Of a stretch of DNA of 64,000 bases, positions 1,749 through 64,000 are shown piece by piece; within the stretch, counting starts at the first letter, position 1; each line of letters starts with the position of its first letter. This DNA comes from an uncultured Actinomycetota bacterium. GTDB taxonomy: Bacteria; Actinomycetota; Aquicultoria; SKW223; CALKMS01. Position numbers and translations under genes: made by a program. The notes below the pieces were generated by a model that searched no databases, was not told the DNA's origin, and worked only from the letters and a program-made list of their open reading frames with translations. The DNA lies in contig CAYRQL010000004.1 of NCBI GenBank assembly GCA_964426525.1, positions 4,720 through 68,719 on the forward strand, written 5' to 3'.

Positions 1749-1754
1749 ATTAAG

Positions 1755-2359: not shown

Positions 2360-2370
2360 GCGAGGCTAAT

Positions 2371-4252: not shown

Positions 4253-4262
4253 GGAAGATTAA

Positions 4263-5261
4263 TTGAAAGTACCTTATTCATCTCGTCGGCGGGTTAGAAA
4301 GTATTTTGGCTCAAGAATTGCCAAAAGGCGAAAAAGAAAAATTGCCCAGCTTGCCACCTTTCTTGTTTTGTTGTTATTAATTGGGTTTTTGTTTACTTTT
4401 ATCAGATTGCCAAAGAAAAAAACGGCTGGTTCAGTTAGCGTGTCTGGCCAAAAGGAAAAAAGCAAAACTTTTTTGGTTATTGGCTCGGAAAAAAAAGAGA
4501 AAATTAAGGAGCGATGTAACGGGCTGATTATCGCTTTGTATAATCCTACAAGTCAGGAAATAAACTCTTTCTACATTCCCCCAGAGCTGATACTGGAAAC
4601 TGGTTCTTTTGGTATTGACAGAGTAGAGTCAGTTTTAACTGGTGGGGTGCCGCTGGCAATTTTGAGTGTCAGGAATCTTTTGGGAATTAAAATCGACCAC
4701 TATTTTAAGATTCCAGCAAAAAAGCTCGAAGCCATCATCGCTTCCAGTGAATTTAGTCCTATAAAAGACTCAATCCAAAGTGATTTGACTTTGCGAGAGC
4801 GGAAAGCGTTTGTGGCCAAACTTTCTCGGGTTAAGCTGGAAAATAGCAAACTTCTTTCTCTCCCTTCACAAGAAGTGCGGATAGGCGATGAAAGGTTTTA
4901 CCAACCAGATAGAGATGAGATTGAGCGATTAGTTGTACTTTACTGGGGGCGAGAATTTTCAGTTATTTCTCAGGCACCAAAGGTGATTATTTTAAATGGT
5001 TGTGGTCAGCCTGGGATTGGAGCTAAAGCAGCCGAAAAATTAATAAATGCTGGCTTTAGGGTAATGGATGTGAAAAACGCTAACTCGTTTGATTACCAAA
5101 ACACCATAATTTCGGCTGGGGTAGAAAAGCAAAAATTAGCTGAGGAAGTTAATGAATTATTGGGTGTTGGATTGGTTAAACTTGAAGAAGGCGGGGGAAC
5201 AGTGGTTGACTTGACATTGATTTTAGGCTGGGATTTCGCAAAGGCAGTAAAAGAGAAGTGA
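4263..5261 (+). CDS. LCP/LytR_C-domain membrane-anchored protein
   Basis: N-terminal basic tail plus a TM segment, and a C-terminal 'KVIILNGCGQPGIGAKAAEKLINAGFRV' LytR_C-like domain. It sits between nadD and rsfS, where the HD protein YqeK is usually found. Confidence 0.5.
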   Translation: MKVPYSSRRRVRKYFGSRIAKRRKRKIAQLATFLVLLLLIGFLFTFIRLPKKKTAGSVSVSGQKEKSKTFLVIGSEKKEKIKERCNGLIIALYNPTSQEINSFYIPPELILETGSFGIDRVESVLTGGVPLAILSVRNLLGIKIDHYFKIPAKKLEAIIASSEFSPIKDSIQSDLTLRERKAFVAKLSRVKLENSKLLSLPSQEVRIGDERFYQPDRDEIERLVVLYWGREFSVISQAPKVIILNGCGQPGIGAKAAEKLINAGFRVMDVKNANSFDYQNTIISAGVEKQKLAEEVNELLGVGLVKLEEGGGTVVDLTLILGWDFAKAVKEK

Positions 5262-5277
5262 GGAAGGAGGCGTTTTT

Positions 5278-5634
5278 CTGGGAAGCAAAGAACTTGCTTT
5301 AAAGCTTGCTGAAGAAGTTGAAAGAAAAAAAGCCAAAGACATTGTATTAATAAAAGTTAAAGATTTTCTGTACTTAACTGATTATTTTTTGATTGCTTCG
5401 GTTGGAAGTTCACGTCAAATGCGCTCGATTGTTGAGGCAGTTAGAGGTCAAGCAAAAAATTCGAAAGCACCTTTTGTTAAAGTTGAAGGGAGTGAAAAAT
5501 CAGGCTGGGTTCTTATTGATCTTGGTGAGGTGGTGGTTCATCTTTTTGAGGCTAAGCTTCGAGACTATTATCAACTAGAACGCTTATGGAAAGATGCACC
5601 AACAATTGTTTTTAAGAGGAAAAACGAAGATTGA
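5278..5634 (+). CDS. rsfS: ribosome silencing factor RsfS, apparent CUG start
   Basis: The first canonical start (TTG at 5389) gives only 81 aa. The frame is open from 5251, and upstream in-frame codons encode 'GSKELALKLAEEVERKKAKDIVLIKVKDFLYLTDYFLIAS', which aligns with RsfS N-termini. GGAGG at 5266-5270 lies 7 nt before CTG 5278. The frame has no ATG, GTG or TTG before 5389. Confidence 0.7.
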   Translation: MGSKELALKLAEEVERKKAKDIVLIKVKDFLYLTDYFLIASVGSSRQMRSIVEAVRGQAKNSKAPFVKVEGSEKSGWVLIDLGEVVVHLFEAKLRDYYQLERLWKDAPTIVFKRKNED

Positions 5635-5703
5635 GGAAGTAATGAGGACAAAAGAGGGTAATGTTGTTTTGTTATTAATTTTTCCCAAGAAAGGGGATTT
5701 TTT

Positions 5704-6396
5704 ATGGAGGGAAAGTTAGAACACTTTGATCTTACGGAAGTAATCGCAGCTTTATCAAAAGCTGGTCGTCGAGGCTGTATAAAAATTTCCTATTCTGAAG
5801 GAGAAGGCGAAGTTTATTTTAAAAAAGATTGGTTAACTAAGATAGCAATCAGTCCTAACCCGGTTCCCTTCGGGAATAGACTGGTGAGAAAGAAGGTTAT
5901 AACTCGAGAACAATTAGATGATTTACTAGATGAAAAAACAATAAATGAACTTCCTGAACCATTAGGAGTATTGATGGTTAGAAAGGGCTGGGTTGAAGGA
6001 GAAAAATTAAAAGAATATCTTAAAGAACATGTAAAAGAGTGTTTTTTTCTTCTTTCAACCAAAAAGGATGGAGAATTTGAGGTTTTAGAGAAAGCGGCTG
6101 AACCAGAGGAAGAGCTAATTCAAATTGATGAGCTGGTAGCAGCGATGCAGGAAATGACTGGTAAGATTAAAGAAATTAAAAAAGAAATTTCTTCTATTAG
6201 GACAATTGTAAAAAAGAACTCATTTGCAAAAGCAAGTGACTTATCAGACGATGAAGAAAAACTTTTCTTTTCCTTTCTTGACGGCGAAAAAAGCCTGGAG
6301 GACATTCAGCGGCAAGGAGGTTTTACTGAATACGAAACCTTTGTCTTGGCTTACGAACTTTTAGAAAAAGGGTTTATTGAAGTGGTTAATGATTAA
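5704..6396 (+). CDS. DUF4388-like domain protein
   Basis: The N-terminal 'LEHFDLTEVIAALSKAGRRGCIKI' resembles the DUF4388 (PatA-N-like) signature. The rest is acidic and coiled-coil. Confidence 0.45.
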   Translation: MEGKLEHFDLTEVIAALSKAGRRGCIKISYSEGEGEVYFKKDWLTKIAISPNPVPFGNRLVRKKVITREQLDDLLDEKTINELPEPLGVLMVRKGWVEGEKLKEYLKEHVKECFFLLSTKKDGEFEVLEKAAEPEEELIQIDELVAAMQEMTGKIKEIKKEISSIRTIVKKNSFAKASDLSDDEEKLFFSFLDGEKSLEDIQRQGGFTEYETFVLAYELLEKGFIEVVND

Positions 6397-6496
6397 GTGT
6401 GTAATTTCTTTAAACTTATAGCCTGAATTGACTCGAAAGTGACTTCAACTTATAATTTTATTTCATTCTAAAGGTTAGTTTGAGCTTTAACAGTGT

Positions 6497-6573
6497 GGGG
6501 ACGTAGCTCAGTCTGGGAGAGCGCATCCTTGGCGTGGATGAGGTCGTGGGTTCGAGTCCCATCGTCTCCACCA
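6497..6573 (+). tRNA. tRNA-Ala (anticodon GGC)
   Basis: Acceptor GGGGACG/CGTCTCC with a G3:U70 pair (the Ala identity element), anticodon loop TTGGCGT, T-loop TTCGAGT, encoded CCA. Length 77 nt. Confidence 0.85.
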
Positions 6574-6800
6574 AATTTAACTTTAACGGAATTTGGGGAA
6601 GCGGGGTTAAACTAACCGTGGTATTTGGACTGCTAAACAAAACTTTTCACCAGGCCTAAAATGAAAAATACTTTTTAAGTTTTGTTTATATAGCTCTATG
6701 GAACTTAAAAAGATACTAAAAAGCTTTTTGGTAATTGGGGTTAGATTTAGTTTTTAAGTCTTATTGGGCAATGTTTTAATATTTGGCGAAATTGTCTTAA

Positions 6801-6820
6801 TGTATTAGTATATTAATACA
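6801..6820. promoter_or_regulatory. candidate GntR operator: inverted repeat TGTATTA-N6-TAATACA
   Basis: Perfect 7-bp arms (tgtattagtatattaataca) immediately upstream of the GntR ORF. This is a typical autoregulatory geometry. Confidence 0.4.
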
Positions 6821-7210
6821 GTGTTGATTTTAAAGTCCTTGAGGTTAAGGGTAAATGCAAATTCAGGAGTACCCGTTTACTGGCAGGTGAAAGAGGAGAT
6901 AAATCGCCTGGTGAGCCTGGGGTTGTTAAAAAAAGGAGAGAAGTTGCCTTCGGTGCGAGAATTGGCGGTAGCTTTGCGAGTGAATCCAAACACCATTGCT
7001 AAAGCTTATCAAATTCTAGAAAAAGAAAAGGTAGTGGCCACTCAAAAAGGGAAAGGGACTTTTGTCAGAAAAACTTCGGTTTTAAATAGAAAGAAAAAGA
7101 TTAAAAAACTATTAGAGAAGTTTTTTTTGGAAGTCGAGATGGCTGGTTTCAGCCGTGAGGAGGTGTTAGTTTTGATAAATGAAGAGTTAAAGAAGGGAGG
7201 AAAAAAGTGA
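6821..7210 (+). CDS. GntR-family transcriptional regulator (YtrA-like, short effector domain)
   Basis: Winged HTH: 'VPVYWQVKEEINRLVSLGLLKKGEKLPSVRELAVALRVNPNTIAKAYQILEKEKVV...GKGTFV'. The start could be GTG 6821 or TTG 6839. Confidence 0.75.
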   Translation: MLILKSLRLRVNANSGVPVYWQVKEEINRLVSLGLLKKGEKLPSVRELAVALRVNPNTIAKAYQILEKEKVVATQKGKGTFVRKTSVLNRKKKIKKLLEKFFLEVEMAGFSREEVLVLINEELKKGGKK

Positions 7211-8127
7211 ATGCAATAGTAACAAACAACTTGACCAAAGATTACCCTTCAATTCGTGCTTTAAACTCTCTGAATCTGGAAGTTCCTCGTGGCTCTATAT
7301 TTGGTTTTTTAGGTCCAAATGGGGCTGGCAAAACTACAACTATTAGGCTTTTGTTAGGCTTAATTTTTCCGACTTCGGGGGAAGCAGAGGTGCTGGGAGA
7401 AAATCCGTTTACTTCTTATCAGTACAAGGAAAAAGTTGGTTATGTTTCGGAAAATCGGGTTTTTTATGAGAACTTTAAGGTAGATGAGTTAATTTCTTTT
7501 ACTCAGGGTTGCTATCAAAGCTGGAGTAAGGAAAGAGAAGAGAAGTTGATTAAACTTTTTGATCTACCACTCAATCAGAGAGTTAGGAATCTCTCAAAGG
7601 GAATGAAGTCACAACTGGCTTTTGTTCTTGCTTTTTGTCATCAACCTGAACTTTTAATTCTTGATGAACCAACCGAAGGGATGGACCCTTTAACCCGGCG
7701 AGATTTTTTAACCACCTTATTGAGTGCGGAAGCAATTGAAGAAACCACAGTGTTTATCTCCAGTCATCTCTTAAATGAAGTGGAGAGAGTAGCAGATTGG
7801 GTGGGCTTGCTTCATAAGGGAAAACTTATTCTCAATACAGCTCTGGATGAGCTTAAAGAAACCGAGTTTGAAGTTGAAGTAGCGTTCGCCAAACCCCCCG
7901 TTATAGAAGAAATTAAAAACATTTCCGGGGTAATCTCGGCTGAAAAACAGGGCGAACAGTGGGTATTAGGTTATCAAGGGAAGAAAGAAAAACTCCAATC
8001 TCAGCTTTCTCTTTATGAACCAACTTATTTGAATTTTAACCCATTAAACCTTGAAGAGATTTTCTTTCGTTATGTTGGAGAGGAAAGAGTGGATACAAAG
8101 AGAGGAGGAATTGAAAATGAGGCTTAA
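7207..8127 (+). CDS. ABC transporter ATP-binding protein
   Basis: Walker A 'GPNGAGKTTT', signature 'LSKGMKSQLAF', Walker B 'LLILDEPTEGMD'. The GTG start overlaps the GntR stop (GTGA). Confidence 0.85.
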   Translation: MNAIVTNNLTKDYPSIRALNSLNLEVPRGSIFGFLGPNGAGKTTTIRLLLGLIFPTSGEAEVLGENPFTSYQYKEKVGYVSENRVFYENFKVDELISFTQGCYQSWSKEREEKLIKLFDLPLNQRVRNLSKGMKSQLAFVLAFCHQPELLILDEPTEGMDPLTRRDFLTTLLSAEAIEETTVFISSHLLNEVERVADWVGLLHKGKLILNTALDELKETEFEVEVAFAKPPVIEEIKNISGVISAEKQGEQWVLGYQGKKEKLQSQLSLYEPTYLNFNPLNLEEIFFRYVGEERVDTKRGGIENEA

Positions 8128-11065: not shown

Positions 11066-12364
11066 TTGAACAAGCGCCAAAAGTATTTGTTATCGGTTTT
11101 TTTTGTTCTGGGCTTAGTTCTTACTTCGGTTTACCTGATTTATCCTCCAGCTAAATCTACTCGTCTGGGTCTGGATTTAAAAGGAGGTCTTCATATTGTT
11201 TTAACCGCTAAGCCTTCTGCGAAAGCACCAGTAACCGAAGAGACAATGGAGCGAGCTAAAGTAGTAATTCAGGAAAGAATTAACAAATTAGGAGTGAGCG
11301 AACCAGAGATTTCCCGTCAGGGCTCAAACAATATCCTGGTTCAACTTCCTGGAGTGAAAAACCCACAGGAGGCTCTGGATATTATTGGAAAAACAGCTTT
11401 GCTTGAATTTCGACCGGTAACTACTTCAACTGCTGAAGGGTTGGTTTTAGGTGAGACCTTGTTGACTGGCCAATATGTGAAGGATGCAGCAGTTGGGTTT
11501 GATGACTTTGGAAAGCCTAAGGTGGAGATGGAGTTTACACCAGAAGGGGCTAAAAAGTTTGACCAGATAACTGCAGCAATGGTTGGAGAGCGTTTGGCAA
11601 TAGTTCTTGATTACAACCCAAAGGGGAAGACTGACGAGGAAAAAGGGATAATTTCGGCTCCCCGAGTCAATGAAAGAATAAGTGGAGGACGAGCTGAAAT
11701 AACTGGTGATTTTACAGTTGACTTTGCTAAAAAGTTGGCCCTTGTTCTGCAGACCGGGGCTTTGCCAGTTAAACTTGATGTGTCTGAAAGTCGAACTGTT
11801 GGCCCCACTCTGGGAAGCGACTCGCTTCGAGCAGCTTTAATAGCTGGCATAGCTGGCTTAATCGCAGTAGTTATTTATATGATTTCCTTTTATCGGCTCC
11901 TTGGGCTTATAACGGCTGGCGCTCTTACAGTTTTTACAACTCTTTTTTGGGGAGTGATAGTGGCAACCAATAAGTTCACTCCTTTAGGCTGGACGCTAAC
12001 ATTACCCGGCATAGCTGGTATCATCCTTTCCATTGGTGTAGCCGCTGATTCCAGCGTTGTTATATTTGAAAGAGTTAAGGAAGAGATAAGGTTAGGAAAA
12101 ACTTTTAAGCAAGCTGCTGACAAGGGATTTACCTTTGGTTTTAAAACGATGGTTGTTGCTGATATTGTTACTTTAATAGCAGCTTTAATTCTAATCTGGC
12201 AAGGGGTAGGCGCAGTCAGAGGCTTTGCTATTTCTCTTTCAGTTGGAATAGGAATTGATTTGTTTACCACCTTTTTCTTCACTCGCCCCCTCCTAGCACT
12301 TTTTTCTTCAAGTGAAGCTTTAAATAAGTCACTTCTCTTAGGAGCTCAAAAGGAGGTGGCTTAA
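11066..12364 (+). CDS. secD: protein translocase subunit SecD
   Basis: 'LGLDLKGGLHIVL' and a C-terminal 6-TM bundle. The RBS GGAGG lies 5 nt before TTG. Confidence 0.9.
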   Translation: MNKRQKYLLSVFFVLGLVLTSVYLIYPPAKSTRLGLDLKGGLHIVLTAKPSAKAPVTEETMERAKVVIQERINKLGVSEPEISRQGSNNILVQLPGVKNPQEALDIIGKTALLEFRPVTTSTAEGLVLGETLLTGQYVKDAAVGFDDFGKPKVEMEFTPEGAKKFDQITAAMVGERLAIVLDYNPKGKTDEEKGIISAPRVNERISGGRAEITGDFTVDFAKKLALVLQTGALPVKLDVSESRTVGPTLGSDSLRAALIAGIAGLIAVVIYMISFYRLLGLITAGALTVFTTLFWGVIVATNKFTPLGWTLTLPGIAGIILSIGVAADSSVVIFERVKEEIRLGKTFKQAADKGFTFGFKTMVVADIVTLIAALILIWQGVGAVRGFAISLSVGIGIDLFTTFFFTRPLLALFSSSEALNKSLLLGAQKEVA

Positions 12365-21846: not shown

Positions 21847-22050
21847 GATGAAAATTGAATATAGGGCTCTGCCTTGTTCGTGAGATGGAATTTTTACTCG
21901 CTTGAGCCAACAAATCGAGCGAGGGAGCCTGGTCTCCAGTTGCGGAATGAAGCCTCATTTAGAGGAATCAGGAAGTAATTGGGAGGGCACCCACTTATGT
22001 GGGAACGGGTTCAGCTGAGTATTCCGGACACGGCAAGGCGGAGCTCAGAA
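21847..22050 (+). ncRNA. structured 5' leader / candidate cis-regulatory RNA of unknown class
   Basis: A 15-bp long-range helix (21864-21878 with 22032-22046, including 3 G-U pairs) encloses about 150 nt containing at least four local hairpins: ctcgct..agcgag, ggag-cctggt-ctcc, cctc-attta-gagg, cccac-ttat-gtggg. The 3' strand of the helix ends 2 nt before the SD AAGGAGGG (22049-22056) of the downstream lipoprotein gene. No ORF is needed to explain the region. Confidence 0.45.
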
Positions 22051-23415: not shown

Positions 23416-23483
23416 TGAAAAATTTTGCTAAAAAGTTAAAAAAATATTAAAATAAGACGATAGTTTTGGGAGGAGGAGCAAAA

Positions 23484-25607
23484 GTGAAAAAATTGAAGAA
23501 GTTAGTCGCAGTATTAGCAACAATAGCATTGCTAGCCATTATAGCTGGTTGTGCTGCGCCTCAAGTTGAAAAGAAAACACCTCCAGCGGTGACCGAGGAG
23601 CCTGCTAAAGAGTTTTCTCTCTCAGAAATACAAAAGTTTTCCGAAGAGGCTTTAGCTTTAGCTTATGGCGATCCATTCCGGGGTGACCCTTATTTAGCTG
23701 CTCTTGAGCTTATGAAGGCACGCGAAGTTGCAACAGAAGGCCTAAGGGTACAGATAATAACTCCTGAGGACGGTGAAGCGGTAAGTGGTAAGGTAACAGT
23801 TCGTTCAGTTGTGGCAATTGATGGCCCACCTGTTCAAAGTGTTAGTTTTTATGTTGATGGTTATCTTCGAGATACAGTCAACAAACCACCTTATGAATTT
23901 GAATGGGATACGGCTAAAGAGGCTTTTACTTCTCACACCTTAAGGGTAGTGGCATTTGATGGAAAGAGTGAAGCTAGCGATGAAATTACTGTTTATTGTG
24001 CTGTCGATGGAGGAATTGCCCTAGAGGGTGCTGACTATAGCAAAAAGCAAGGATACATTTCTTCAGTAAAATATCTTGACCCCGAAGACAACCGATATGT
24101 GCGGGCGGTGATGGCTAAAGGTAGTTCAGCTACTTCTCTTACTTATGTGTTTTCTCCGCCTCATCCTTTTTCTTATATTCAGGGAAGGCTAACTATAAAT
24201 GGGAAAGTTTTAGCTGGTGATGCTCCTGAAATTTATATTTATAATTGGGGTACTCAAAGGTATGAGCAAGAGATTATTGATTATCGAAGCGGAGAGGAGA
24301 TTGGCTCTGCAGAGGGGAGCGATTTTGGTTTTCCTTATTTTCAACCAGGAAGCAATCAGGTAATAGTAAAAATAGTTGTTCCGGGAGGGTCAACCTATCA
24401 AGTTGAAAGTTTGAATTTAGTCTATAAATATGTAATAGATAAAGTTAAGCCCAATATTGGTGCCACCTTTACTCATGCTTATTTAGATTCAAGCGGTACC
24501 AAAACAAAAGCTCGTTTCATCTTTAACTTATCAGAAGATGCTTTTGTTACTCTCAATCTTTACAAATCAAGCGGAGCAAAGATTGCTTCTTATCGGAAAG
24601 CTTTTGGCTCCGGTTATAACTGGTTTAACTGGGAAGTTCCTCGTGGCTTTTCTGTTTCCAATATAAAGTATCGTTTAACTGCTCAGGATTCAGCTGGCAA
24701 TACCAGTTCCACTTCTCTTAAATCATTTAAACCGCTGGTTCCTGACCCCTATCAGTTTCTTCCCAAAACTACTCCTTTTGGTGTTGAAGGCAAACCGATT
24801 GTTTTGCCTTACAGCAGCGAAACAACAGATACTACTGTTTCAGTTTGGAATTTCATTGCTCATAGCGGTAATGTTCAAAAAGTTACGTACTACGGAGATC
24901 CTGATTACCGAGCAGTTTTAGTTGGGCCATACGAAACCTGGTCTTCAGTTATTTATGCTTTTAAAGCTAAAAAGGTTACGCCATTTAAATATGCTAGCTT
25001 TAAGGCATCTTTCGATATTGAAGAGATATATATGGCTGGCGGCCAGAAACCAATTTTTAAGATTTACAACTATATTACTGGAAAGTATGATTCTGATCTT
25101 TATAACCCAATTTTAGCTCGCGATGCTTTTTCGCCTTTAGCTTCCAGTATTTATGGTGATGCTTGGGCTTCAGGCGGCGAAATACCCTGGTATTATACTG
25201 AACCAGGTACCGGTATAGTAAGAATTAAGTATGAAGTCCCACCGCGTTCAATCGTCTTGATAAAGGATGAATTGAGTTTAAGCTATCGCTGTGTAGCTGA
25301 TAGTGGTGACCCCGGGATCGAGTCGGGCAGTTTGCAAATGAAAGATGCTAAGTCGGGTGATGGTAAGGTTGAATTCCGCTATCACCTTGATGAAGATGCC
25401 TTCGTTACCATCAGAGTAGAGACTGGCTCTGGTAAGTTGATAAAGTCGACCAAGTGGGGTGATAATAAAGGATTTTTCTATCATTACTTCTGGGTTCCCC
25501 CTGAATATTACGGTAAAAAAGGTCGAGTTAAACTTCGTCTCCAGGACCCGGCTGGAAATACTGCTTCAACTGGCTATCGTTACTTTACTTTTCCCAGCAC
25601 ACCATAG
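23484..25607 (+). CDS. large surface lipoprotein with a Big-like Ig domain and two FlgD-Ig-like C-terminal repeats
   Basis: The GTG start is 7 nt after GGGAGGAGG. Lipobox 'LLAIIAGC'. Ig-like domain 'VSFYVDGYLRDTVNKPPYEFEWDT...HTLRVVAFDG'. Two homologous modules: about 24461-24735 and 25327-25604. Confidence 0.6.
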   Translation: MKKLKKLVAVLATIALLAIIAGCAAPQVEKKTPPAVTEEPAKEFSLSEIQKFSEEALALAYGDPFRGDPYLAALELMKAREVATEGLRVQIITPEDGEAVSGKVTVRSVVAIDGPPVQSVSFYVDGYLRDTVNKPPYEFEWDTAKEAFTSHTLRVVAFDGKSEASDEITVYCAVDGGIALEGADYSKKQGYISSVKYLDPEDNRYVRAVMAKGSSATSLTYVFSPPHPFSYIQGRLTINGKVLAGDAPEIYIYNWGTQRYEQEIIDYRSGEEIGSAEGSDFGFPYFQPGSNQVIVKIVVPGGSTYQVESLNLVYKYVIDKVKPNIGATFTHAYLDSSGTKTKARFIFNLSEDAFVTLNLYKSSGAKIASYRKAFGSGYNWFNWEVPRGFSVSNIKYRLTAQDSAGNTSSTSLKSFKPLVPDPYQFLPKTTPFGVEGKPIVLPYSSETTDTTVSVWNFIAHSGNVQKVTYYGDPDYRAVLVGPYETWSSVIYAFKAKKVTPFKYASFKASFDIEEIYMAGGQKPIFKIYNYITGKYDSDLYNPILARDAFSPLASSIYGDAWASGGEIPWYYTEPGTGIVRIKYEVPPRSIVLIKDELSLSYRCVADSGDPGIESGSLQMKDAKSGDGKVEFRYHLDEDAFVTIRVETGSGKLIKSTKWGDNKGFFYHYFWVPPEYYGKKGRVKLRLQDPAGNTASTGYRYFTFPSTP

Positions 25608-45741: not shown

Positions 45742-46623
45742 ATGGAAAAGGGAAGTTACCGGCTAAAAACAGGGCTGGCTGAAATGCTAAAAGGCGGTGT
45801 CATAATGGATGTTACCAATGCTGAGCAAGCAAAGATTGCCGAAGATGCTGGTGCGGTTTCTGTTATGGCTTTAGAAAGAGTACCCGCCGATATTCGAGCA
45901 GCTGGCGGAGTGGCAAGAATGGCTGACCCATCAATCATTGAAGAGATTATGGAAGCTGTTTCTATTCCTGTAATGGCAAAAGTGCGGATAGGTCATTTTG
46001 TTGAAGCGCAAATTTTAGAAGCTCTGGGAGTTGATTTTATAGACGAGAGCGAAGTTTTAACTCCGGCTGACGAAGAGCACCACATTGATAAACACAAATT
46101 CAGTATCCCTTTTGTTTGTGGCTGTCGTAATTTAGGAGAGGCGTTAAGGAGAATTGGCGAAGGAGCGGCAATGATAAGAACAAAAGGAGAAGCTGGTACA
46201 GGTAATGTGGTTGAAGCGGTCAGGCATATGCGGGCAGTAATGGGGGAAATCCGACGAATTAATTCTCTTTCTGACGATGAGTTAATGAAGGTAGCTAAGG
46301 AAATCCAGGCTCCTTATGAGTTAGTGAAAAAGGTTAAAGAGCTTGGTCGGCTGCCTGTAGTTAATTTTGCCGCTGGCGGAGTGGCAACTCCAGCTGATGC
46401 TGCTTTAATGATGCAACTTGGGGCTGATGGTGTTTTTGTCGGTTCGGGAATTTTTAAGTCAGAGAATCCTCCACTTTATGCGAAAGCAATTGTCGAAGCA
46501 GTTGCTCACTATGACGATCCTGATGTTTTAGCTCGAATTTCTCGAAGGCTTGGCCAGCCCATGAAGGGCTTAGATGTAAAGGTTTTATCTCAAGAAGAGC
46601 TTTTACAGGTGCGTGGTTGGTAA
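45742..46623 (+). CDS. pdxS: pyridoxal 5'-phosphate synthase subunit PdxS
   Basis: 'GGVIMDV', '[12 protein letters not shown]', 'AKVRIGH'. Confidence 0.9.
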
Positions 46624-47201
46624 TGAGAATAGGTGTTTTGTCTTTTCAGGGTGATGTTCGAGAGCATATACAAGCAGTAGAAAGAGCAGGCGGAAAGGCT
46701 TTTCCCGTTAAGCGAGCTGTTGAAATAAGCAAGTTAGATGGCTTGATTATTCCTGGTGGAGAAAGCACTACTATCTCAAAGTTTATTCAAGAAGAGGGGA
46801 TGGCTGAACCTATTAGAGCTCAAGTAGCTAAAGGTATGCCTCTTTATGGCACCTGCGCGGGTCTGATTATCTTGGCTCGTAGGGTTTTAAATAACACAGT
46901 CTTTTCTCTGAACATTCTTGATGTAGAGGTAAAGAGAAACGCTTACGGTCGGCAAAAGGATAGTTTTGAAGAAGAAATACAAGTCGAAGGCTTTGAAACC
47001 CTCTATCGGGGAGTTTTTATTCGTGCTCCTTGGATAACCAGGGTTGGTCCTCAGGTAAAAGTATTAGCTCGTTACCAGGGAAAGCCGGTTTTGGTTTTAG
47101 AAAAGAAGGTGCTGGCAAGTACTTTTCATCCTGAATTAACTTCTGATGACCGCATTCATCGTCTTTTTTTGGGTTTAGTTGAGGGGAGCAAAAAAGGCTA
47201 A
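46623..47201 (+). CDS. pdxT: PLP synthase glutaminase subunit PdxT
   Basis: '[11 protein letters not shown]', 'GTCAG', 'FHPE'. The ATG overlaps the pdxS TAA. An alternative TTG start is at 46617. Confidence 0.85.
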   Translation: MRIGVLSFQGDVREHIQAVERAGGKAFPVKRAVEISKLDGLIIPGGESTTISKFIQEEGMAEPIRAQVAKGMPLYGTCAGLIILARRVLNNTVFSLNILDVEVKRNAYGRQKDSFEEEIQVEGFETLYRGVFIRAPWITRVGPQVKVLARYQGKPVLVLEKKVLASTFHPELTSDDRIHRLFLGLVEGSKKG

Positions 47202-47950
47202 TGTCTGGTCACTCGAAATGGGCTCAAATTAAAAGAAAAAAATCCAGAGAAGATGCTAAAAGAGGTCAGCTTTTTTCCAAACTGATTCGGGCAGTGATAA
47301 TTGCCGCCAAGAAAAACTCAAATCCTGAGACCAACCCACAGTTAGCTCAAGCAATTGAGCGGGCACGCTCTTTTCATGTTCCTCAAGACAATATTGAGCG
47401 AGCAATCAAAAGAGCAGCTGGCGAAGGTGAAACCATCAGCTATGAACACGTTTTTTACGAAGGATACGGACCTGGAGGGGTAGCTTATTTAGTTGAAGTA
47501 ATGACTGATAACCGCAATCGCACAGCTGCTGAGATTCGAAATATTTTTTCTTCAGCCGGAGGAAGCTTAGCTGAAAGCGGCAGTGTTAGTTGGTTGTTTG
47601 AGAGGAAGGGTGTGATTGTAATTAGGATTAATTCAACTGAGGAAGAAGAAAGTTTGTTAGAGGTTGCTCTAGAAGAGGGTGCGGATGATATAGTCACTCG
47701 GGAAAACGAGGTTGAAATTATAACTTCCTTTGAGAATTTTCGCCGGCTAAAAGAATCTTTGGAAAAAAATTTTACGCTGATTTCAGCCGAAATTACTATG
47801 TTTCCACAACGCACGGTGCGAGTAGAAGGTAATGAAGCCAGGAAAGTTTTAAAACTTTTAGATGCTTTAGAAGAACACGATGATGTTCAGGAAGTTTATA
47901 CTAACTTCGACATCCCTGAAGGCATTCTCGAGGAAATAGCCGCTTTGTAA
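47201..47950 (+). CDS. yebC: YebC/PmpR-family DNA-binding regulator
   Basis: 'MSGHSKWAQIKRKK'. Confidence 0.9.
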   Translation: MSGHSKWAQIKRKKSREDAKRGQLFSKLIRAVIIAAKKNSNPETNPQLAQAIERARSFHVPQDNIERAIKRAAGEGETISYEHVFYEGYGPGGVAYLVEVMTDNRNRTAAEIRNIFSSAGGSLAESGSVSWLFERKGVIVIRINSTEEEESLLEVALEEGADDIVTRENEVEIITSFENFRRLKESLEKNFTLISAEITMFPQRTVRVEGNEARKVLKLLDALEEHDDVQEVYTNFDIPEGILEEIAAL

Positions 47951-48460
47951 ATGATTATTTTTGGAGTTGACCCGGGAACAGCAACTACCGGGTATGGAAT
48001 TGTTGAGGTAAGCAATAATCAATTAATTAGCGTTGGTTACGGTTGTATTAGAACCTCGCCTGAACTTGACCATCATTTCAGGCTCCTGAAGATTTATCGG
48101 AAACTGCTTGATTTAATTGAACTTTATAAACCGGATGATATAGCGGTGGAGAAAGTTTTTTTTAGTTTAAACTCGAAAACGGCGATGCTGGTTGGTGAAG
48201 CTCGGGGAGTGGTTATGTTAGCTGCTGCTACTTGTGGCTTAAGAGTTTTTGAATACACGCCTTTGCAGATTAAGATGTCTTTAGTTGGTTTTGGTCGAGC
48301 TGACAAAAGACAGGTTCAAACAATGGTAAAAGAAGTTTTAAGTCTTGATAGACTTCCTTTTCCAGATGATGCTGCCGATGCTTTAGCGGCTGCTGTTTGT
48401 CATGCCCATTCGCTACAATTTTTAGAAAAGGTGGAAAAAGCTGATGATTTCTTATCTTGA
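47951..48460 (+). CDS. ruvC: Holliday junction resolvase RuvC
   Basis: 'IIFGVDPGTATTGYG' and 'PDDAADALA'. Confidence 0.9.
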   Translation: MIIFGVDPGTATTGYGIVEVSNNQLISVGYGCIRTSPELDHHFRLLKIYRKLLDLIELYKPDDIAVEKVFFSLNSKTAMLVGEARGVVMLAAATCGLRVFEYTPLQIKMSLVGFGRADKRQVQTMVKEVLSLDRLPFPDDAADALAAAVCHAHSLQFLEKVEKADDFLS

Positions 48461-49046
48461 AGGTGAAGTTCTAAAAATTTTACCCGAATCAGCTGTTGTT
48501 TTAGTGGGAGGGGTTGGTTATCAGATTTACCTTCCTCAAAAAGAACTGCTTTCTTTAAAAGAGAGAGAAAAAAAAGCTTTTTATACTTTTTTACATTTGA
48601 AACCTAACGGAATTGAGCTTTATGGATTTACTCGAGCAGAAGAAAAAGACCTTTTTAAGGAACTACTTTCTTTAGCTCAAGTAGGTCCAAAGACGGCCTT
48701 AGCTATTTTGTCAGTTTTTTCTTTAGCTGAACTGAGCAAGGTAGTGGCTAATGGAGACTTCTCTGCTTTGGCTCGCGTTCCTGGTCTGGGTCCCAAAACT
48801 GCTCGTCGCCTTTTAAGCGAGTTGAAAGAAAAGTTTGAAGGCTTAAATTTGCCGGTTGTGCTAGGAGAAGAATTGGGAGGCGAAAAAAGACTTCTGGTGA
48901 TAGAAGCACTGGCAAGTTTAGGTTACCCGATTTCTCAAGCTCGAGAAGTAGCTCAAAACCTAGAGGTAGATTTTCAAGAGCTTTCAGTAGAAGAAATTGT
49001 TCGCGTGGCTTTAAGTAAAATGTCTAAGGAGGCAAAGGTTGACTGA
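48444..49046 (+). CDS. ruvA: Holliday junction DNA helicase RuvA
   Basis: 'MISYLEGEV' and the HhH '[13 protein letters not shown]'. Confidence 0.9.
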
Positions 49047-50049
49047 CGAAGCCTTACTTTCTTCTTTTCCTCTAGATGAAGATAGAGAAGTTGAGGCTAG
49101 CTTACGCCCTTGCTTTTTAAAGGAGTTTATTGGGCAAGAAAAGATAAAGGAAACACTTTCTATTATCCTTAGAGCTGCCCAGGGAAGGTCTGAGTGCCTG
49201 GATCATCTTCTTTTTTGTGGTCCACCGGGTCTTGGTAAAACTACGATGGCGACCATTATTGCTAATGAGTTGAGCGCCAAAGTTAAAATTACTTCAGGTC
49301 CAGCTCTCGAAAGAGCAGGGGATTTAGCAGCCATTTTGACTTCTTTAGAGGAAGGTGACGTTCTTTTTATTGATGAAATTCATCGTCTTTCGCGAACAGT
49401 GGAGGAAATTCTTTATCCAGCTCTTGAAGATTACAAGCTTGACATTATTATTGGTAGGGGCCCTTCAGCGCGAACCTTGCGCCTTTTTTTATCGCCATTT
49501 ACTTTGATTGGCGCAACAACCCGACCTGGACTCTTAACAGCTCCTTTAAGAGATAGGTTTGGTCAGACAATCCGATTTGATTTTTATTCTCCTGAGGAAC
49601 TAAAGGAAGTAGTCCTTCGTTCAGCTAAAATTTTAAAGATTGTTATTACTGAAGAAGGAGCCGTCGAGATTGCTCGACGCTCTCGGGGCACACCTCGCGT
49701 TGCTAACCGACTATTAAGAAGAGTCAGAGATTATGCTCAAGTTAAGAAAGATGGTTTGATCGATGAGCAAGTAGCCCGCGAAGCTTTGGATTTTTACGAG
49801 GTTGATGAAAAAGGTTTAGACGCTCTTGACCGCAAAATACTTTCAACCTTAATCGAAAAGTTTCAGAGTAAACCGGTTGGTTTAAACACCCTGGCTGTTT
49901 CGGTTGGTGAAGACCCGCATACTATTGAAGATGTTTATGAACCCTACCTTTTGCAATTAGGCCTAGTTCAGAGAACTCCTCGAGGGCGAGTTCCGACTGA
50001 GCATGCTTTCGAACATTTAGGGATAAAGAAAAAAGGGACTCTTTTTTGA
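49039..50049 (+). CDS. ruvB: Holliday junction DNA helicase RuvB
   Basis: 'GPPGLGKTT', 'LFIDEIHRL', 'GATTRPG'. Confidence 0.9.
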
Positions 50050-59194: not shown

Positions 59195-59497
59195 ATGCCA
59201 AATATTAAGTCAAAAGCGAAAAGGATGAGACAAGCTGAAAAAAGGCGATTAAGGAATAAGGCAGTCAAGACTAGAGTTAAAAGTGTGATCAAAGAGTTTC
59301 AGGAAGCTTTTGAGGCTGGGAAAAGAGAGGAAGTTGCAAGCTGCCTTCCCCTTGTTTATAAAACTTTAGACAAAGCGGCATCCAAAGGAGTAATCCATAA
59401 ACGGAGGGCGGCAGCTTTCAAATCAAAAATGGCAAGAAAGCTCAACCAGCTTTCGCTCGAGTCTTCGAAAGCTGAAAAATCTTCTCCAAAAAAATAA
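59195..59497 (+). CDS. rpsT: 30S ribosomal protein S20
   Basis: 'MPNIKSKAKRMRQAEKRRLRNKAVKT'. The in-frame upstream extension from 59174 overlaps the promoter. Confidence 0.85.
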   Translation: MPNIKSKAKRMRQAEKRRLRNKAVKTRVKSVIKEFQEAFEAGKREEVASCLPLVYKTLDKAASKGVIHKRRAAAFKSKMARKLNQLSLESSKAEKSSPKK

Positions 59498-60407
59498 CCG
59501 GCACTACTGAAGGCCCCATTTTTCCTGTCTTAATGAGATAATCGAGCCTTAAACCTTCAAAGAGTGCTTTCTCCAATTCTTGAAAAGAAAAGTTGCTTGA
59601 TTCGTTTATTAAGTGGCGAATGTAGAATGGATTCAAGTTGAGTTTTTTTGCAATTATTTGGTAATTATTGACTCCTTCAACTGCAAAAGCTTTGACTTTC
59701 AACCATAGTCGTAATCGACTTAGAATTCGTGAGAGAAAAGCGGGAACTTCTGAAGGGTGAAAAACTGTTTTGGATAAAACTCTCAATACTTGTTGCTTAT
59801 CTTTTTTGGCCAAGGCTTTAAAAAGCTTAAAATTTAGGTCTTCAGTGCCTTCACTAAGTAAAAGTTTTAACTCTTGACTGCTTATCTTATTTTGGTTAGC
59901 AAAATAAAGAGCGATTTTTTTAATTTCTTGTTTAATTAAGCTGAAGTTGCTGCCGTATAAATTAATCAGGGCTTGGGAGAGCTTGTCGGAAACTTGCTTT
60001 CCTTGTTTGCCAAACTCAGCTTGAATTTTTTTTCTCAACAAGTTTTCATTAAAAACTATTTTTTTTACTTCTTTAAATCCTTTTAAAAATTCTGGTTTTA
60101 ATAAAGGATGCTGAGACTTTAGCTCTTCGGCTAAAATTATCAGGTGTTTTTCTTTTGATTGCTGATATATCTGGATTAAATTTTCTATTTCTTTTTTATT
60201 CAGTTTTTCACCCTGAAAAAGCAGGATCACCTCTCGGTTTTCAAAAAAGGGTATAACTGGTTGGGAAAGAAAGTTATCAATTTTTTCTTCTTCCAGATTA
60301 ATCTTTCGAATTTCAAATTGGCCAGGATTTTTCTTCTCAAATTTTTCGATTATTTCTTCAGCTTCAAAGTTAGCTAAATCTAAATCACCGTAAAAAAGGT
60401 AGATCAC
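59442..60407 (-). CDS. holA: DNA polymerase III delta subunit
   Basis: 'MIYLFYGDLDLANFEAEEI'. This is the conserved comEC-holA / rpsT neighbourhood. The GTG start overlaps the stop of the upstream response regulator. Confidence 0.8.
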   Translation of the reverse strand: MIYLFYGDLDLANFEAEEIIEKFEKKNPGQFEIRKINLEEEKIDNFLSQPVIPFFENREVILLFQGEKLNKKEIENLIQIYQQSKEKHLIILAEELKSQHPLLKPEFLKGFKEVKKIVFNENLLRKKIQAEFGKQGKQVSDKLSQALINLYGSNFSLIKQEIKKIALYFANQNKISSQELKLLLSEGTEDLNFKLFKALAKKDKQQVLRVLSKTVFHPSEVPAFLSRILSRLRLWLKVKAFAVEGVNNYQIIAKKLNLNPFYIRHLINESSNFSFQELEKALFEGLRLDYLIKTGKMGPSVVPVIFLEKIFQLSKTRAKAG

Positions 60408-61012
60408 TCTAACTCCAGATAACCTTTTTCGATTGCTCTGCTTACTGCTTGAGCTCGGTTTGCGACTCTCAATTTTTGGTAAATTGAGCGAAGATGAGTT
60501 TTAATTGTACTTTCGGAAAGAAAAAGCCTTCTAGAGGCTTCCTTAACTGTCAGCCCATCTTTCATCAGTTTAAGAATTTCTCTATCTCGAGGAGTGAGCA
60601 TTTCCTTTTCTGCTTCAGCCATAGCTTTTTCAAGTAAAGGGGAAATAAAAAACCCCTCTTTTTCAGCGGATTTAAGAGCTTTTATTATATCTTCAGTGGG
60701 TTCGTCTTTTAAAACGCAACCATCAAAGTAAGTTTTAACTTCAGGAGCCAGACTAACATCTCTAAGAAAACCGCTAAATAAGATAATTTTAATTACTGGC
60801 CACCTTTTCTTTATTTTTTTTCCGAGCTCTAATCCACTTTGACAGCCAAGTCTAAAGTCAATTATTATGAAGCGAGGAGGATTTTTTTCAATGAACTTGA
60901 GGGCTTTATCAGGCGAAGAAAAACTTCCAATTACTTGGTAGCCGTTAGATTCAAGAATCTCTTTAACTCCTATGCGGGAAACTTCGTGATCATCAATGAT
61001 GACTACTTTCAT
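60404..61012 (-). CDS. NarL/LuxR-family response regulator
   Basis: REC domain 'KVVIIDDHEVSRIG...IIIDFRLG', and HTH 'LTPRDREILKLMKDGLTVKEASRRLFLSESTIKTHLRSIYQKL'. The ATG overlaps the HK stop (ATGA). Confidence 0.85.
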   Translation of the reverse strand: MKVVIIDDHEVSRIGVKEILESNGYQVIGSFSSPDKALKFIEKNPPRFIIIDFRLGCQSGLELGKKIKKRWPVIKIILFSGFLRDVSLAPEVKTYFDGCVLKDEPTEDIIKALKSAEKEGFFISPLLEKAMAEAEKEMLTPRDREILKLMKDGLTVKEASRRLFLSESTIKTHLRSIYQKLRVANRAQAVSRAIEKGYLELE

Positions 61013-62772
61013 CTTTTTTTCAAAGCCCAAGGAAGATCGATTTTGATTTCACAACCCTGACTCGGCTTGCTTTTTACGCTTAAGGTTGCTTTTATTTCTC
61101 GGGCTCTTTCTTTAAGGTTTTTTAACCCTCTAGCCTCAGCTTTTTTCTTGGTTTCACGCACGTTGAATCCCACTCCATCATCCTTGATTTTTATATAAAA
61201 ATGTTTCTTGTTTTTATGATAACCCATTGTTACAACAATTTGCTTGGCTTGAGCGTGTTTAAAGATATTATGATAAGACTCCTGAATCATTCGGAATAGA
61301 TGCCTTTGAACTAAAGATGATAGTTTGGGAGGCTGGCGGTCAATCTTAAGTTTAACTTCAATGCCAGTATTTTTCTCAAAGCTAGCTGTGTACTTTTTTA
61401 CTAAATTGAAAAGGTCTTCTTGCCATTTAAGGCTTTCCCAATCAATAACAGCTAAACGAAGGTTTTTTAAGCTTCTCTTAACTATCTCTTTAGCTAACTC
61501 AACTTTTTTTTCTAAATCAGCTCTTTTTTTGGTATCCAAAGAGCTGAGAAGGCAATTTAAGCCATAAAGTTCTTGGACTACTGAATCGTGTAACTCAATG
61601 GACATTTTGTTTCTCTCTTCAGCAATGGTAGTTTTTTTAATTTTTTCATAGGATAAAGCGTGAAAAAAAGCCAGAGAAATTTGTTCAGCCAAAGTTTTTA
61701 AAAGTTCGCACTGTTCAGGAGAGAAGGTTTTGTTTTCTGGGGCTTCCACTAACAAAGCTCCTTGTACTTCGTTTTCGAAAATTAAAGGAAGAAAAGCAAA
61801 AGCTGAACGCGCAGGATAGCCTATTAATTCTTGAACTTCAGCAGCGAGAGGGTGCAGAGAAGTAACAACAACCATTTCTTTTTTTTGCAGAGCTAATCCA
61901 AGAGCGGTTTGATTTCCGATTTCGATTAAAGGGATTTTTTTATTAAACTTTTTGAACCTTCCTGATTGAGACCAGTGAAAAATGCTTTCTCCTTCAACTA
62001 AGCCCAGAGCAGCTTTAGGAAATCCCAGGTTTTCTAAGAAAGATAAAGTAATGCCTACTATTTCTTCTACCTCAGTTTGAGCTAAGATGCTCCGGGTGAT
62101 TTTTTGAATAGTTGTAATCTGGGCTAGAGTCTGACGCGTTTTTTCAAAAGCTTTTTTAACTTGATTTTCTTCCCTTTTTAGGGCTTCTCGCTGACTATCT
62201 GTTTGGTCGAGTACTTTTGAAAGAATAGTGATTATAAAAATTACGCCAAAAAAGTCAAAAAAATGAGCAACGAAAATATCTAACTGTTCAAGCTTGTTAA
62301 TGGTAGCGGGGGTAAAACCATTTACAACTAATGAAAGATAATAAAGGACTGACCAGAGCGAAAAGATGAGGGAGGAAACTTTCCAGCTGGAGTAGCGGGC
62401 AAAGATTATCAAAACCGAAAGAGTGTAGACAAAAAAAGGACTCCCCCAGCCTTTAGTTAAGGCAAGTAGGCCTGCGCTGAAAAAAAGGTCAGCTAGCCAG
62501 AAGAGATAAGCTCGGTGAAAAACTTTAGCCAGATATTTAATTTTTATAAGTAATATTAAGTTATAGATAAGTGTGGTGTACCAAAGTAGATCAAAAAGTG
62601 GAATTCGATCAAAAGGGGATATTGCTAAACTCATTATCAAGTAAGCTAAAATCAGTGAGAAGAAACGAAATATGAGTATAGCTAAAAGAAATTTTCGGTT
62701 AGTCTCCGGGAAATTGTGAGCTGACCGTAAGGCGCTTTCCTTCTTTTTTAATTCTAATCCAGCCGTTTTCAT
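61009..62772 (-). CDS. sensor histidine kinase: polytopic membrane domain + GAF + HisKA_3 + HATPase_c
   Basis: About six TM helices, a GAF-like core ('GALLVEAPEN'), the H-box 'IELHDSVVQELYGL', and ATPase 'DDGVGF'. Confidence 0.8.
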   Translation of the reverse strand: MKTAGLELKKKESALRSAHNFPETNRKFLLAILIFRFFSLILAYLIMSLAISPFDRIPLFDLLWYTTLIYNLILLIKIKYLAKVFHRAYLFWLADLFFSAGLLALTKGWGSPFFVYTLSVLIIFARYSSWKVSSLIFSLWSVLYYLSLVVNGFTPATINKLEQLDIFVAHFFDFFGVIFIITILSKVLDQTDSQREALKREENQVKKAFEKTRQTLAQITTIQKITRSILAQTEVEEIVGITLSFLENLGFPKAALGLVEGESIFHWSQSGRFKKFNKKIPLIEIGNQTALGLALQKKEMVVVTSLHPLAAEVQELIGYPARSAFAFLPLIFENEVQGALLVEAPENKTFSPEQCELLKTLAEQISLAFFHALSYEKIKKTTIAEERNKMSIELHDSVVQELYGLNCLLSSLDTKKRADLEKKVELAKEIVKRSLKNLRLAVIDWESLKWQEDLFNLVKKYTASFEKNTGIEVKLKIDRQPPKLSSLVQRHLFRMIQESYHNIFKHAQAKQIVVTMGYHKNKKHFYIKIKDDGVGFNVRETKKKAEARGLKNLKERAREIKATLSVKSKPSQGCEIKIDLPWALKKR

Positions 62773-64000
62773 CGGTTCGATAAACTCTGACCCTTTTCCT
62801 TCTCAATAGGGAGATAACTTCTTTTTTAGGATGACCGTATTGGTTGTTTTTTTTCAAGCAAATTATACCAATTTTTGGTTTAACTTTATTTAGAAATTCG
62901 GGTAAAAGAAAGCTACCGTGGTGAGGAAGTTTTAAAACCGTTGCTAGCTTTAATTTTTTGGTCAGCCAGGTTTGGCTTTTTTTCTCGGCATCGCCTGGAA
63001 ATAAAAAAGAAAACTTGCCAGTTTTAAAAACTGCTGTTAGAGGAGAGTCATTGAGGTCGCCGTCAAGATAAAATGGTATTAATTCAATAGTTCCGTCGGT
63101 AAGTTGAAAGGCAGTAATGTTTTTTGTAAGGTGAATTTTTACTTTGGCTTGCCGGTATTTCGAAATCAATTTCTGGAATTCTTCAGATTGAGGATAAGGT
63201 TGAGAGTATAATTCCCCAATTTTTAATTTATCAGGCAAGCTGTAAAGACTGCCGATATGGTCGTAGTGCGGATGAGAAAGAATGACAGCATCAATTTTCT
63301 GAATGGGCAAGGAGTGCAAACTTTTAAATAGTAGAGAGCTTGAGGGTCCTCCGTCGATTAATAAATTTTGCCCTCGTGGTAGCTGGATAAGGCAGGCATC
63401 TCCCTGCCCAACATTTAAGAAAGTAACAGTTGGCGGATGAAAATAAGTACATAAGGAGTAATGCCAGAGCACAAAAGAGAAAATTAGTAGATAATAAGTT
63501 AAAAAGCTAAAAAGATTAATTTTTAATTTTTGTTTTAATATGATTTTAGAGGAAAAGACTGAAAGAAGGGAGAAAAAGGTTAAAATTGTCATAACCGGAC
63601 TCAGCGGAGGAAATAAAGATAAAGTTTTAACAGTTAAAATTATTATTCTGGCAGCAAGAAAGAGTAAAGGCATAAGTGGTAGGGTTAAAAATGAGGCAAG
63701 AAGGCTTAAAGCAAATGCAAAGAAAGCAAATGAGATAACCAAGCTAAAAAGAGGAATAATTAAAAGGTTGGACAGAATAGAAATTAAGGGAAAGTTTCCA
63801 AAAACATATAGCACCAGAGGTAGGGTGCCTAGTTGAGCAGAGAGAGTTATGTTAATAAGACTTTTTAAGCTTTCAGGATAAATCGAGACAAATTGGTCGA
63901 GTAGAGGTTTGAAAAATCCGATGCCAGCTACAGCCAGAGCTGAAAGTTGGAAGCTTAAGTTATGGAGCAAAAAAGGGTTAAAAAAAAGCATTATAAAACA
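62699..64000 (-). CDS. comEC: DNA internalisation competence protein ComEC/Rec2, C-terminal part (gene continues beyond the window end)
   Basis: Competence-domain TM helices and the C-terminal MBL domain ('NVGQGDA', 'LSHPHYDHIG'). Confidence 0.8.
   Translation of the reverse strand, partial: CFIMLFFNPFLLHNLSFQLSALAVAGIGFFKPLLDQFVSIYPESLKSLINITLSAQLGTLPLVLYVFGNFPLISILSNLLIIPLFSLVISFAFFAFALSLLASFLTLPLMPLLFLAARIIILTVKTLSLFPPLSPVMTILTFFSLLSVFSSKIILKQKLKINLFSFLTYYLLIFSFVLWHYSLCTYFHPPTVTFLNVGQGDACLIQLPRGQNLLIDGGPSSSLLFKSLHSLPIQKIDAVILSHPHYDHIGSLYSLPDKLKIGELYSQPYPQSEEFQKLISKYRQAKVKIHLTKNITAFQLTDGTIELIPFYLDGDLNDSPLTAVFKTGKFSFLFPGDAEKKSQTWLTKKLKLATVLKLPHHGSFLLPEFLNKVKPKIGIICLKKNNQYGHPKKEVISLLRRKRVRVYRTDENGWIRIKKEGKRLTVSSQFPGD

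Follow-up and report, generated by a model that had tools for sequence, protein, structure and literature searches.

The DNA analysed here is a 64,000-nucleotide (nt) stretch of contig CAYRQL010000004.1, referred to below as the window. On its minus strand, in 59442-64000, it carries comEC, a sensor histidine kinase gene, a gene for a NarL-type response regulator and holA, in that order. We favour, as the probable explanation, a vertically inherited and clade-specific two-component system that lies inside a comEA-comEC-kinase-regulator-holA housekeeping block and senses in the membrane. The kinase-regulator pair goes back to the ancestor of a deep clade, to which it is specific, and its placement is old and inherited. 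Profile comparisons suggest that the N-terminal membrane domain of the kinase is remotely related to the domain with which PilS senses pilin. The preliminary description of this DNA, made from the letters alone, was correct about the four gene identities, which agree with Pfam and NCBIfam, and about the order of the genes on one strand and their overlapping junctions. Its NarL-type label also stands, as the regulator has Response_reg and GerE domains and E. coli NarL is its best solved relative (E 3.8e-25). Its proposals on the age, host and function of the pair fared less well.

The age of the arrangement is seen from gene neighbourhoods (L### labels denote loci or contigs and P### labels denote kinase homologues). 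Relatives of the kinase are only a handful among 5.8 billion proteins. Word-indexed protein searches found seven kinase clusters only, and an exhaustive HMMER search yielded P0043, P0044 and the wider family. The gene order is identical in six of six close lineages, in which holA is 62-100% identical. Three distant full-length kinases (P0014, P0043, and P0044), which are 27-34% identical to the window kinase, are embedded alike; the neighbourhood of P0014 reads leuS-comEA-comEC-kinase-regulator-holA-rpsT-lepA-hemN-hrcA. In all, nine distinct lineages on independent contigs share the comEC-kinase-regulator-holA order. The preliminary description had proposed a lineage-specific insertion and had allowed that presence throughout the clade would make the pair ancestral instead. 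The neighbourhood comparison, with nine lineages in the same order and kinase identity down to 27-34%, shows just this ancestry to a deep clade; hence the pair is not a recent insertion. A more distant homologue (P0046) is not beside comEC. Another, P0045, lies on a contig of 68% guanine plus cytosine (GC) that begins at the first of two tandem kinases, which are followed by a regulator and then by a PAS-domain protein, not holA (L174, 32-4026).

Outside the clade, a metagenome comEC scan provided the best 80 loci. These are 32-41% identical at best and include no close relatives, so that they serve as an outgroup census only. Enough downstream sequence for assessment was present at 58 of the 80 listed loci. 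Among these matches listed, 0 of 58 assessable loci had a kinase or regulator gene separating comEC from holA, and in 18 of 58 holA followed within about 1.2 kb downstream of comEC with neither gene intervening. The earlier view that comEC directly followed by holA is the usual state is therefore upheld elsewhere by these 18 loci; its Firmicutes framing is probably wrong, as discussed below. A literature search of incomplete coverage found no paper on a two-component system between comEC and holA. Other signalling genes are seen near comE or holA genes in the scanned loci. Locus L126 (5688-13394) contains comEA, an OmpR-type regulator, a HisKA kinase, a GerM-domain protein, comEC, holA and a convergent rpsT, and similar arrangements are found in L127, L130, L147, L148, L154, L166, and L170. 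These eight metagenome loci resemble the window in having signalling genes within the comE-holA block on the same strand. They differ from it in their HisKA kinase, winged-helix regulator and GerM-domain gene, and in the placement of these genes between comEA and comEC, that is, before comEC. The L126-type insert is an independent event. In L090 (73-1500) and L091 (1082-2509), a stand-alone 121-amino acid (aa) receiver protein is encoded directly 5' of a holA that is distant (27% identical); rpsT is convergent there too.

The window ends within comEC. The contig L001, which has 1 mismatch in 4559 nt to the window and reaches beyond it, contains the complete comEC (720 aa) and also comEA. The features of the locus are as follows.

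62699-64000, minus strand: 3' part of comEC, DNA-uptake channel (Pfam Competence and Lactamase_B); the gene continues past the window end
62699-62772, minus strand: 74-nt stretch coding in two frames, comEC 3' end and kinase 5' end (open reading frame coordinates, relatives, synonymous sites)
61009-62772, minus strand: sensor histidine kinase, 587 aa, ATG 62772, TGA 61011-61009 (Pfam, alignments, AlphaFold model)
62203-62700, minus strand: N-terminal six-helix transmembrane sensor domain of the kinase, about aa 25-190 (hydropathy, model, hhalign)
61669-62076, minus strand: GAF domain of the kinase, aa 233-368 (Pfam GAF_2, E 1.1e-12)
61447-61617, minus strand: HisKA_3 dimerisation and phospho-acceptor domain, aa 386-442 (His395 codon 61590-61588)
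61027-61308, minus strand: HATPase_c catalytic domain, aa 489-582 (Pfam PF02518)
61009-61012, minus strand: ATGA junction of kinase stop and regulator start (sequence; regulator ATG 61012-61010)
60404-61012, minus strand: NarL-type response regulator, 202 aa, TGA 60406-60404 (Pfam)
60674-61006, minus strand: receiver domain of the regulator (PF00072; Asp52 codon 60859-60857)
60437-60601, minus strand: GerE/LuxR helix-turn-helix of the regulator (PF00196)
60404-60407, minus strand: GTGA junction of regulator stop and holA start (sequence; holA GTG 60407-60405)
60416-60413, minus strand: GGAG Shine-Dalgarno sequence of holA (sequence)
59442-60407, minus strand: holA, DNA polymerase III delta subunit, 321 aa (TIGR01128; Pfam DNA_pol3_delta_C)
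59195-59497, plus strand: rpsT, ribosomal protein S20, convergent with holA (Pfam Ribosomal_S20p; gene call on L001)

The positions given earlier for the ATGA (61012-61009) and the GTGA (60407-60404) are found in the sequence as described. Full-length comEC of L001 passes TIGR00361 (210.9 bits, cut-off 190.05) and holA passes TIGR01128 (132.7 bits, cut-off 80). The comEC stop codon at 62701-62699 results in a 74-nt overlap with the kinase open reading frame, and comEA overlaps comEC by 4 nt on L001. Thus the comEA-comEC-kinase-regulator-holA block of the window's clade has zero intergenic bases and overlaps of 4, 74, 4, and 4 nt. Two genes (2.4 kb) separate holA from comEC, which are not directly adjacent here. 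The 3' ends of holA and rpsT overlap by 56 nt (59442-59497), and such an overlap of 4-65 nt is also present in relatives. Synonymous conservation, defined as the share of identical codons among identical amino-acid pairs, is 0.97 in the holA codons of this overlap (308-320). This leaves a terminator no place between holA and rpsT, and antisense read-through is likely.

Hydropathy places five to six hydrophobic helices, joined by short loops, in kinase residues 25-190. The model of this sensor domain is a helical bundle (predicted local distance difference test (pLDDT) 88.9; predicted template modelling score 0.80). Pfam returned no match to the isolated domain, even at E up to 10, and a fold search of the PDB with the model returned no significant match. 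Arg36, Asp95, and Pro112 are invariant in the domain. A profile built from 21 family members aligned with the membrane domain of a PilS encoded on L101 (hhalign 94.6%, E 7e-8, 172 columns), and the invariant arginine of helix 1 and aspartate of helix 3 of the family align with an arginine and an aspartate of PilS. Negative controls scored 0.3% (an MFS transporter) and 0.05% (the ComEC membrane region). Additionally, 5 of the 21 family members match the Pfam model 6TM_PilS (PF25323) directly, with a best E of 9.3e-8. The six membrane segments of PilS contact pilin directly and thereby control pilin expression (PMC6058289). Because PilS binds pilin through its membrane segments and the window kinase is encoded inside a DNA-uptake operon, sensing of a pilin or pseudopilin by the kinase would be a reasonable and testable idea. 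L101 is an unrelated metagenome contig; at 1601-7264 it carries a genuine PilS (6TM_PilS, PAS, HisKA) and PilR (sigma-54 activator), divergent beside comEC.

The kinase is shown to be a polytopic membrane protein. Its six-helix sensor lacks any large external loop and is followed by a GAF domain in the cytoplasm and by an intact HisKA_3/HATPase_c core. Its Pfam domains are GAF, HisKA_3, and HATPase_c, and the AlphaFold model of the full kinase has a mean pLDDT of 81. The HisKA_3 domain (PF07730) scores 36.4 bits against a cut-off of 24, and His395 is invariant in 33 aligned homologues. The HATPase_c domain has N and G boxes with invariant Asn502, Asp531, Gly533, and Gly535 (DxGxG motif). It is related to the catalytic domain of VraS by sequence (E 5.4e-14) and by fold (template modelling score 0.87), and the kinase core is similar to VraS and DesK. 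The regulator is likewise intact; it combines a receiver (PF00072) with a GerE domain (PF00196) and conserves Asp8, Asp52, Ser/Thr80 (Ser80 in the window) and Lys102. Compared with the closest relative, L176, the ratios of nonsynonymous to synonymous substitution rates are 0.14 for the kinase, 0.16 for the regulator, 0.17 for comEC, and 0.12 for holA. By this codon comparison, the kinase and regulator genes are under purifying selection. Neither protein passes an NCBIfam equivalog of the NarX-NarL, MadS-MadR, LiaS or MctS-MctR groups; the best scores are 93.9 against 578 for the kinase (NarX) and 108.8 against 300 for the regulator (MadR). The pair belongs to the NarL/HisKA_3 class; the architecture of its sensor is unusual, and so is its operon position, which is anciently conserved.

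Several known systems resemble the pair in part. PilS-PilR, found in Pseudomonas aeruginosa and many pilus bearers, is alike in its six membrane helices, in the lack of a large external loop and, at the profile level only, in homology of the membrane domain. The window kinase carries GAF where PilS carries PAS, and HisKA_3 instead of HisKA, and its partner is NarL-type and not a sigma-54 activator; thus the window pair is not a PAS and HisKA kinase with a sigma-54-dependent PilR. There is also no pilin gene nearby at the window locus, and the window sequence fails the 6TM_PilS model. VraS-VraR, DesK-DesR, LiaS-LiaR, and MadS-MadR of the NarX/NarL class share the HisKA_3 and HATPase_c core and the receiver and GerE regulator, and several systems of this class sense signals within the membrane. 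The window kinase differs from them in its membrane domain, its extra GAF domain and its genomic context. DevS/DosT-DevR of mycobacteria are actinobacterial and combine GAF, HisKA_3, and a NarL-type regulator, and DevR is among the solved relatives of the window regulator. DevS and DosT are soluble proteins with two haem-binding GAF domains, whereas the window kinase has a single GAF domain and is predicted to have five to six membrane helices. ComP-ComA of Bacillus subtilis consists of a polytopic HisKA_3-type kinase and a NarL-type regulator that act in quorum control of competence. In contrast, the window pair has no comQ or comX, the upstream neighbour of its kinase is comEC in nine of nine lineages, and ComP lacks a GAF domain. 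The likeness to ComP-ComA seen here is one of architecture. Lastly, the Bacillus block comEA-comEB-comEC/(yqzM)/holA/rpsT has the same backbone order and a convergent rpsT (PMC4634765). The window block lacks comEB and yqzM and carries the kinase-regulator pair between comEC and holA; every junction of the block overlaps in the window's clade.

The host is probably an uncultured low-GC lineage of basal Actinomycetota (Candidatus Aquicultoria and relatives). The nearest labelled relative, L010, is a metagenome-assembled genome (MAG) of Candidatus Geothermocultoraceae (Actinomycetota, class Ca. Aquicultoria); its kinase is 69% identical and its gene order is the same. Since this label is based on a 6-kb binned contig, the phylum is probable and not proven. 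Ca. Aquicultoria form a basal actinobacterial branch (PMC10746217). The window has a GC content of 39.6% and carries housekeeping genes. A pdxS-pdxT-yebC-ruvC-ruvA-ruvB cluster lies at 45742-50049, in what we take, from Mycobacterium and Streptomyces maps, to be an actinobacterial arrangement. RuvC is atypical of Bacilli. The window lacks the WhiB motif, an actinobacterial marker, but this does not settle the matter. The preliminary description had read the locus against Firmicutes gene order; the nearest labelled relative and the pdxS-to-ruvB cluster speak against that framing, and the comEC-holA-rpsT block is in any case common to Firmicutes and Actinomycetota. Elsewhere the window contains a 6S RNA gene (21863-22048, plus strand; Rfam RF00013, 86.8 bits), three tRNA genes (1842-1914, 2284-2356, and 6497-6570) and, at 23466-25607 on the plus strand, a gene for a 713-aa protein in which Big_7 (bacterial Ig-like) is the sole recognisable domain and the remainder is unannotated.

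The junctions of the pair are less conserved than its position. The 4-nt ATGA overlap is also present in L003, L176, L177, and L178, and distant lineages have gaps of 9-46 nt. The spacing between kinase and regulator and between regulator and holA is as follows (negative values are overlaps).

Window's clade: kinase-regulator -4 nt, regulator-holA -4 nt
L006: kinase-regulator +9 nt, regulator-holA -11 nt
L172: kinase-regulator +27 nt, regulator-holA +15 nt
L173: kinase-regulator +46 nt, regulator-holA +269 nt

In relatives, holA starts with ATG at the position of the window GTG. The regulator codons that bear the holA ribosome-binding site (189-202) have a synonymous conservation of 0.81. Among other same-strand junctions in the window, at least four have a 4-nt overlap and four more have a 1-nt overlap. 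The 4-nt overlaps of the pair are no more than chance would give, and the gene order, shared by nine lineages on independent contigs, is more than chance. Because 4-nt and 1-nt overlaps are common in the window and the spacing varies, the overlaps reflect a compact genome and no special device for co-translation of holA. Of the translational coupling with holA that had been proposed earlier, the overlaps are real and no terminator-like site was found on the coding strand, but the tight spacing is not conserved in L006, L172, or L173.

Upstream of comEA, five aligned relatives share a conserved sigma-70-like promoter (TTGATT-17-TAnnTT) and a GGAGGGG ribosome-binding site. A perfectly conserved tRNA-Pro(GGG) gene with its own TTGAAT-17-TATAAT promoter is divergent from comEA (L001 4646-4722, outside the window). 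On the coding strand from the comEC 3' end to holA (62772-59442), no terminator-like site was found. Consensus matches to internal promoters at 62258-62231 in the kinase gene and at 60891-60864 and 60713-60684 in the regulator gene were rejected because they are conserved no more than the amino acids dictate and lie off the peaks of synonymous constraint. The 269-nt spacer of L173 has promoter matches at chance level and no terminator.

From these features, the following course of events can be proposed. The comEA promoter would drive all five genes as one transcript. The regulator, which lacks its own Shine-Dalgarno sequence, would be translated by re-initiation at the ATGA, and holA would be translated from its own GGAG beside the regulator stop. 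The kinase would detect a signal within the membrane via its PilS-related domain and pass it on in an ordinary phosphorelay from His395 to Asp52. As the sensor domain is remotely related to the pilin-binding domain of PilS, the most likely role of the system would be to monitor the DNA-uptake apparatus on its membrane or pilus side and to tune the transcription of its targets. We infer this link to the DNA-uptake apparatus from the position of the genes and from the PilS-like domain. Co-expression of holA would probably be a by-product of a constitutively expressed block and not a means of replication control. A precedent for two-component control of competence exists in the actinobacterium Micrococcus luteus, in which a regulator mutation decreases transformation at least 1000-fold (PMC8467076).

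A number of observations weigh against this account. In a neighbour-joining tree of comEC, the loci that carry the pair group together and the pair-less locus L092 falls inside their cluster; this may be due to later loss of the pair or to poor resolution of the tree. The regulator of L011 (9121-9704; MAG CALKMS01) has a 7-aa deletion in the receiver and a frameshift, with kinase and holA intact; either the gene has decayed or the MAG was misassembled here. PF25323 is not matched by the window kinase or by the three distant embedded kinases, so that the link to PilS is at the profile level only. A search for prepilin motifs found none in the window and none in 11 loci, including all those that carry the pair. 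The alignment of five comEA upstream regions contains no conserved inverted repeat or operator, and only the comEA promoter, its ribosome-binding site and the tRNA-Pro promoter are conserved. We infer co-transcription and translational coupling from the geometry of the genes only. Finally, many bacteria keep the comEC-holA block for no known functional reason, and an insert may persist in it without a functional tie. As for L092 itself, which is the nearest comEC relative without the pair, a 330-nt non-coding gap (11722-12051) separates comEC from holA, and a DUF4349 gene lies between holA and rpsT. No remnants of a kinase or regulator were detected in that gap.

Several of these observations would fit neutral hitch-hiking, to which we give a substantial chance, short of even. 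The pair would have entered a frozen, constitutively transcribed block by a single insertion, with a signal and regulon unrelated to DNA uptake or replication, and it would have been retained because genes that overlap do not come apart easily and the site gives steady low expression. Conservation of comEC-holA-rpsT in many unrelated loci, as in Bacillus (PMC4634765), fits this explanation, and so do overlapping junctions as the norm in the window genome, the unconserved holA spacing of distant lineages, the degenerate regulator beside the intact holA of L011, the lack of the pair in L092 and of an operator at the comEA promoter, and the occurrence of the distant kinase homologues P0046 and P0045 (a tandem copy) in other contexts. 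However, the position has been kept though the kinase diverged to about 30% identity. The sensor is related to a pilin-sensing domain, and pili or pseudopili act together with ComEA and ComEC. Furthermore, independent two-component genes occur in or beside com genes elsewhere, as in L126 and seven similar loci and in the PilS-PilR genes of L101.

The vertically inherited, membrane-sensing system that we favour could also be given a more specific function. The kinase might measure how much competence pseudopilin or type IV/Tad pilin is present in the membrane and tune the expression of pilus and com genes via the regulator; placement in comEA-comEC-holA would then link the dosage of the sensor with the DNA channel and with a subunit of the replisome. 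In this specific form, we regard the idea as unlikely.

It is more doubtful still that, via obligatory co-transcription and translational coupling, the pair places expression of the delta subunit of the clamp loader, and with it replication, under the control of a signal. In favour of this are the GTGA overlap, the absence in the window's clade of any intergenic room for a holA promoter, and the lack of a terminator-like site. However, holA is an essential housekeeping gene of the clamp loader, and for this reason it is unlikely to be made conditional. It has its own conserved Shine-Dalgarno sequence, the spacer before it measures 269 nt in L173 and 15 nt in L172, it is intact beside the broken regulator of L011, and 4-nt overlaps are generic in the window genome. 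The preliminary description had suggested signal-dependent coupling of DNA uptake or replication; given the essential nature of holA and the lack of a conserved operator upstream of comEA, that suggestion is not sustained. A precedent for pilin sensing that feeds into cell-cycle control does exist in Caulobacter, where PilA signals through PleC-PleD (PMC7196804).

The remaining alternative concerns the start of the kinase. Relatives support a long kinase that would begin at ATG 62772 and overlap comEC. An in-frame ATG lies 38-77 nt 5' of the comEC stop in six of six close and in two distant relatives, and the kinase of L173 has a TTG start that overlaps comEC by 4 nt. Kinase codons 1-12 have a synonymous conservation of 0.95 against a gene mean of 0.55; their synonymous sites are almost frozen, as coding in two frames would lead one to expect. 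Public gene calls on L001, L002, and L176 begin the kinase at Met47, which gives 541 aa. The automatic calls in the window (62634-62772) and on L001, L002, L176, and L177 are 46-92 codons too late and cut away the first membrane helix of the kinase, and those on L177 remove more. That the overlap is an annotation artefact, with the 541-aa kinase starting at Met47, no overlap with comEC and a 64-nt gap that could hold a promoter, is hardly credible: it has on its side these calls and the lack of a Shine-Dalgarno sequence at ATG 62772, but Met47 likewise lacks one, its codon is missing from L178 and L003, the first membrane helix upstream of it is conserved and would be cut off, and neither the conserved upstream ATG nor the frozen codons 1-12 would be accounted for.

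Competence regulation in Actinomycetota is largely unknown (PMC8467076). If the pair is a hitch-hiker, the locus is merely a curiosity of gene order. It is in any event a clean case of a two-gene insert that has long been carried in a gene block ranking among the most conserved in Gram-positive-type bacteria. The locus is distinguished by its conserved position in a DNA-uptake operon, by its putative PilS-related sensor and by a combination of a six-helix membrane domain, GAF, HisKA_3, and a NarL-type partner that is unmatched by named families. If the kinase does gauge a pilin pool, it would constitute a pilin-sensing competence checkpoint in basal Actinomycetota. The locus offers a concrete candidate for a competence regulator in a basal, uncultured class.

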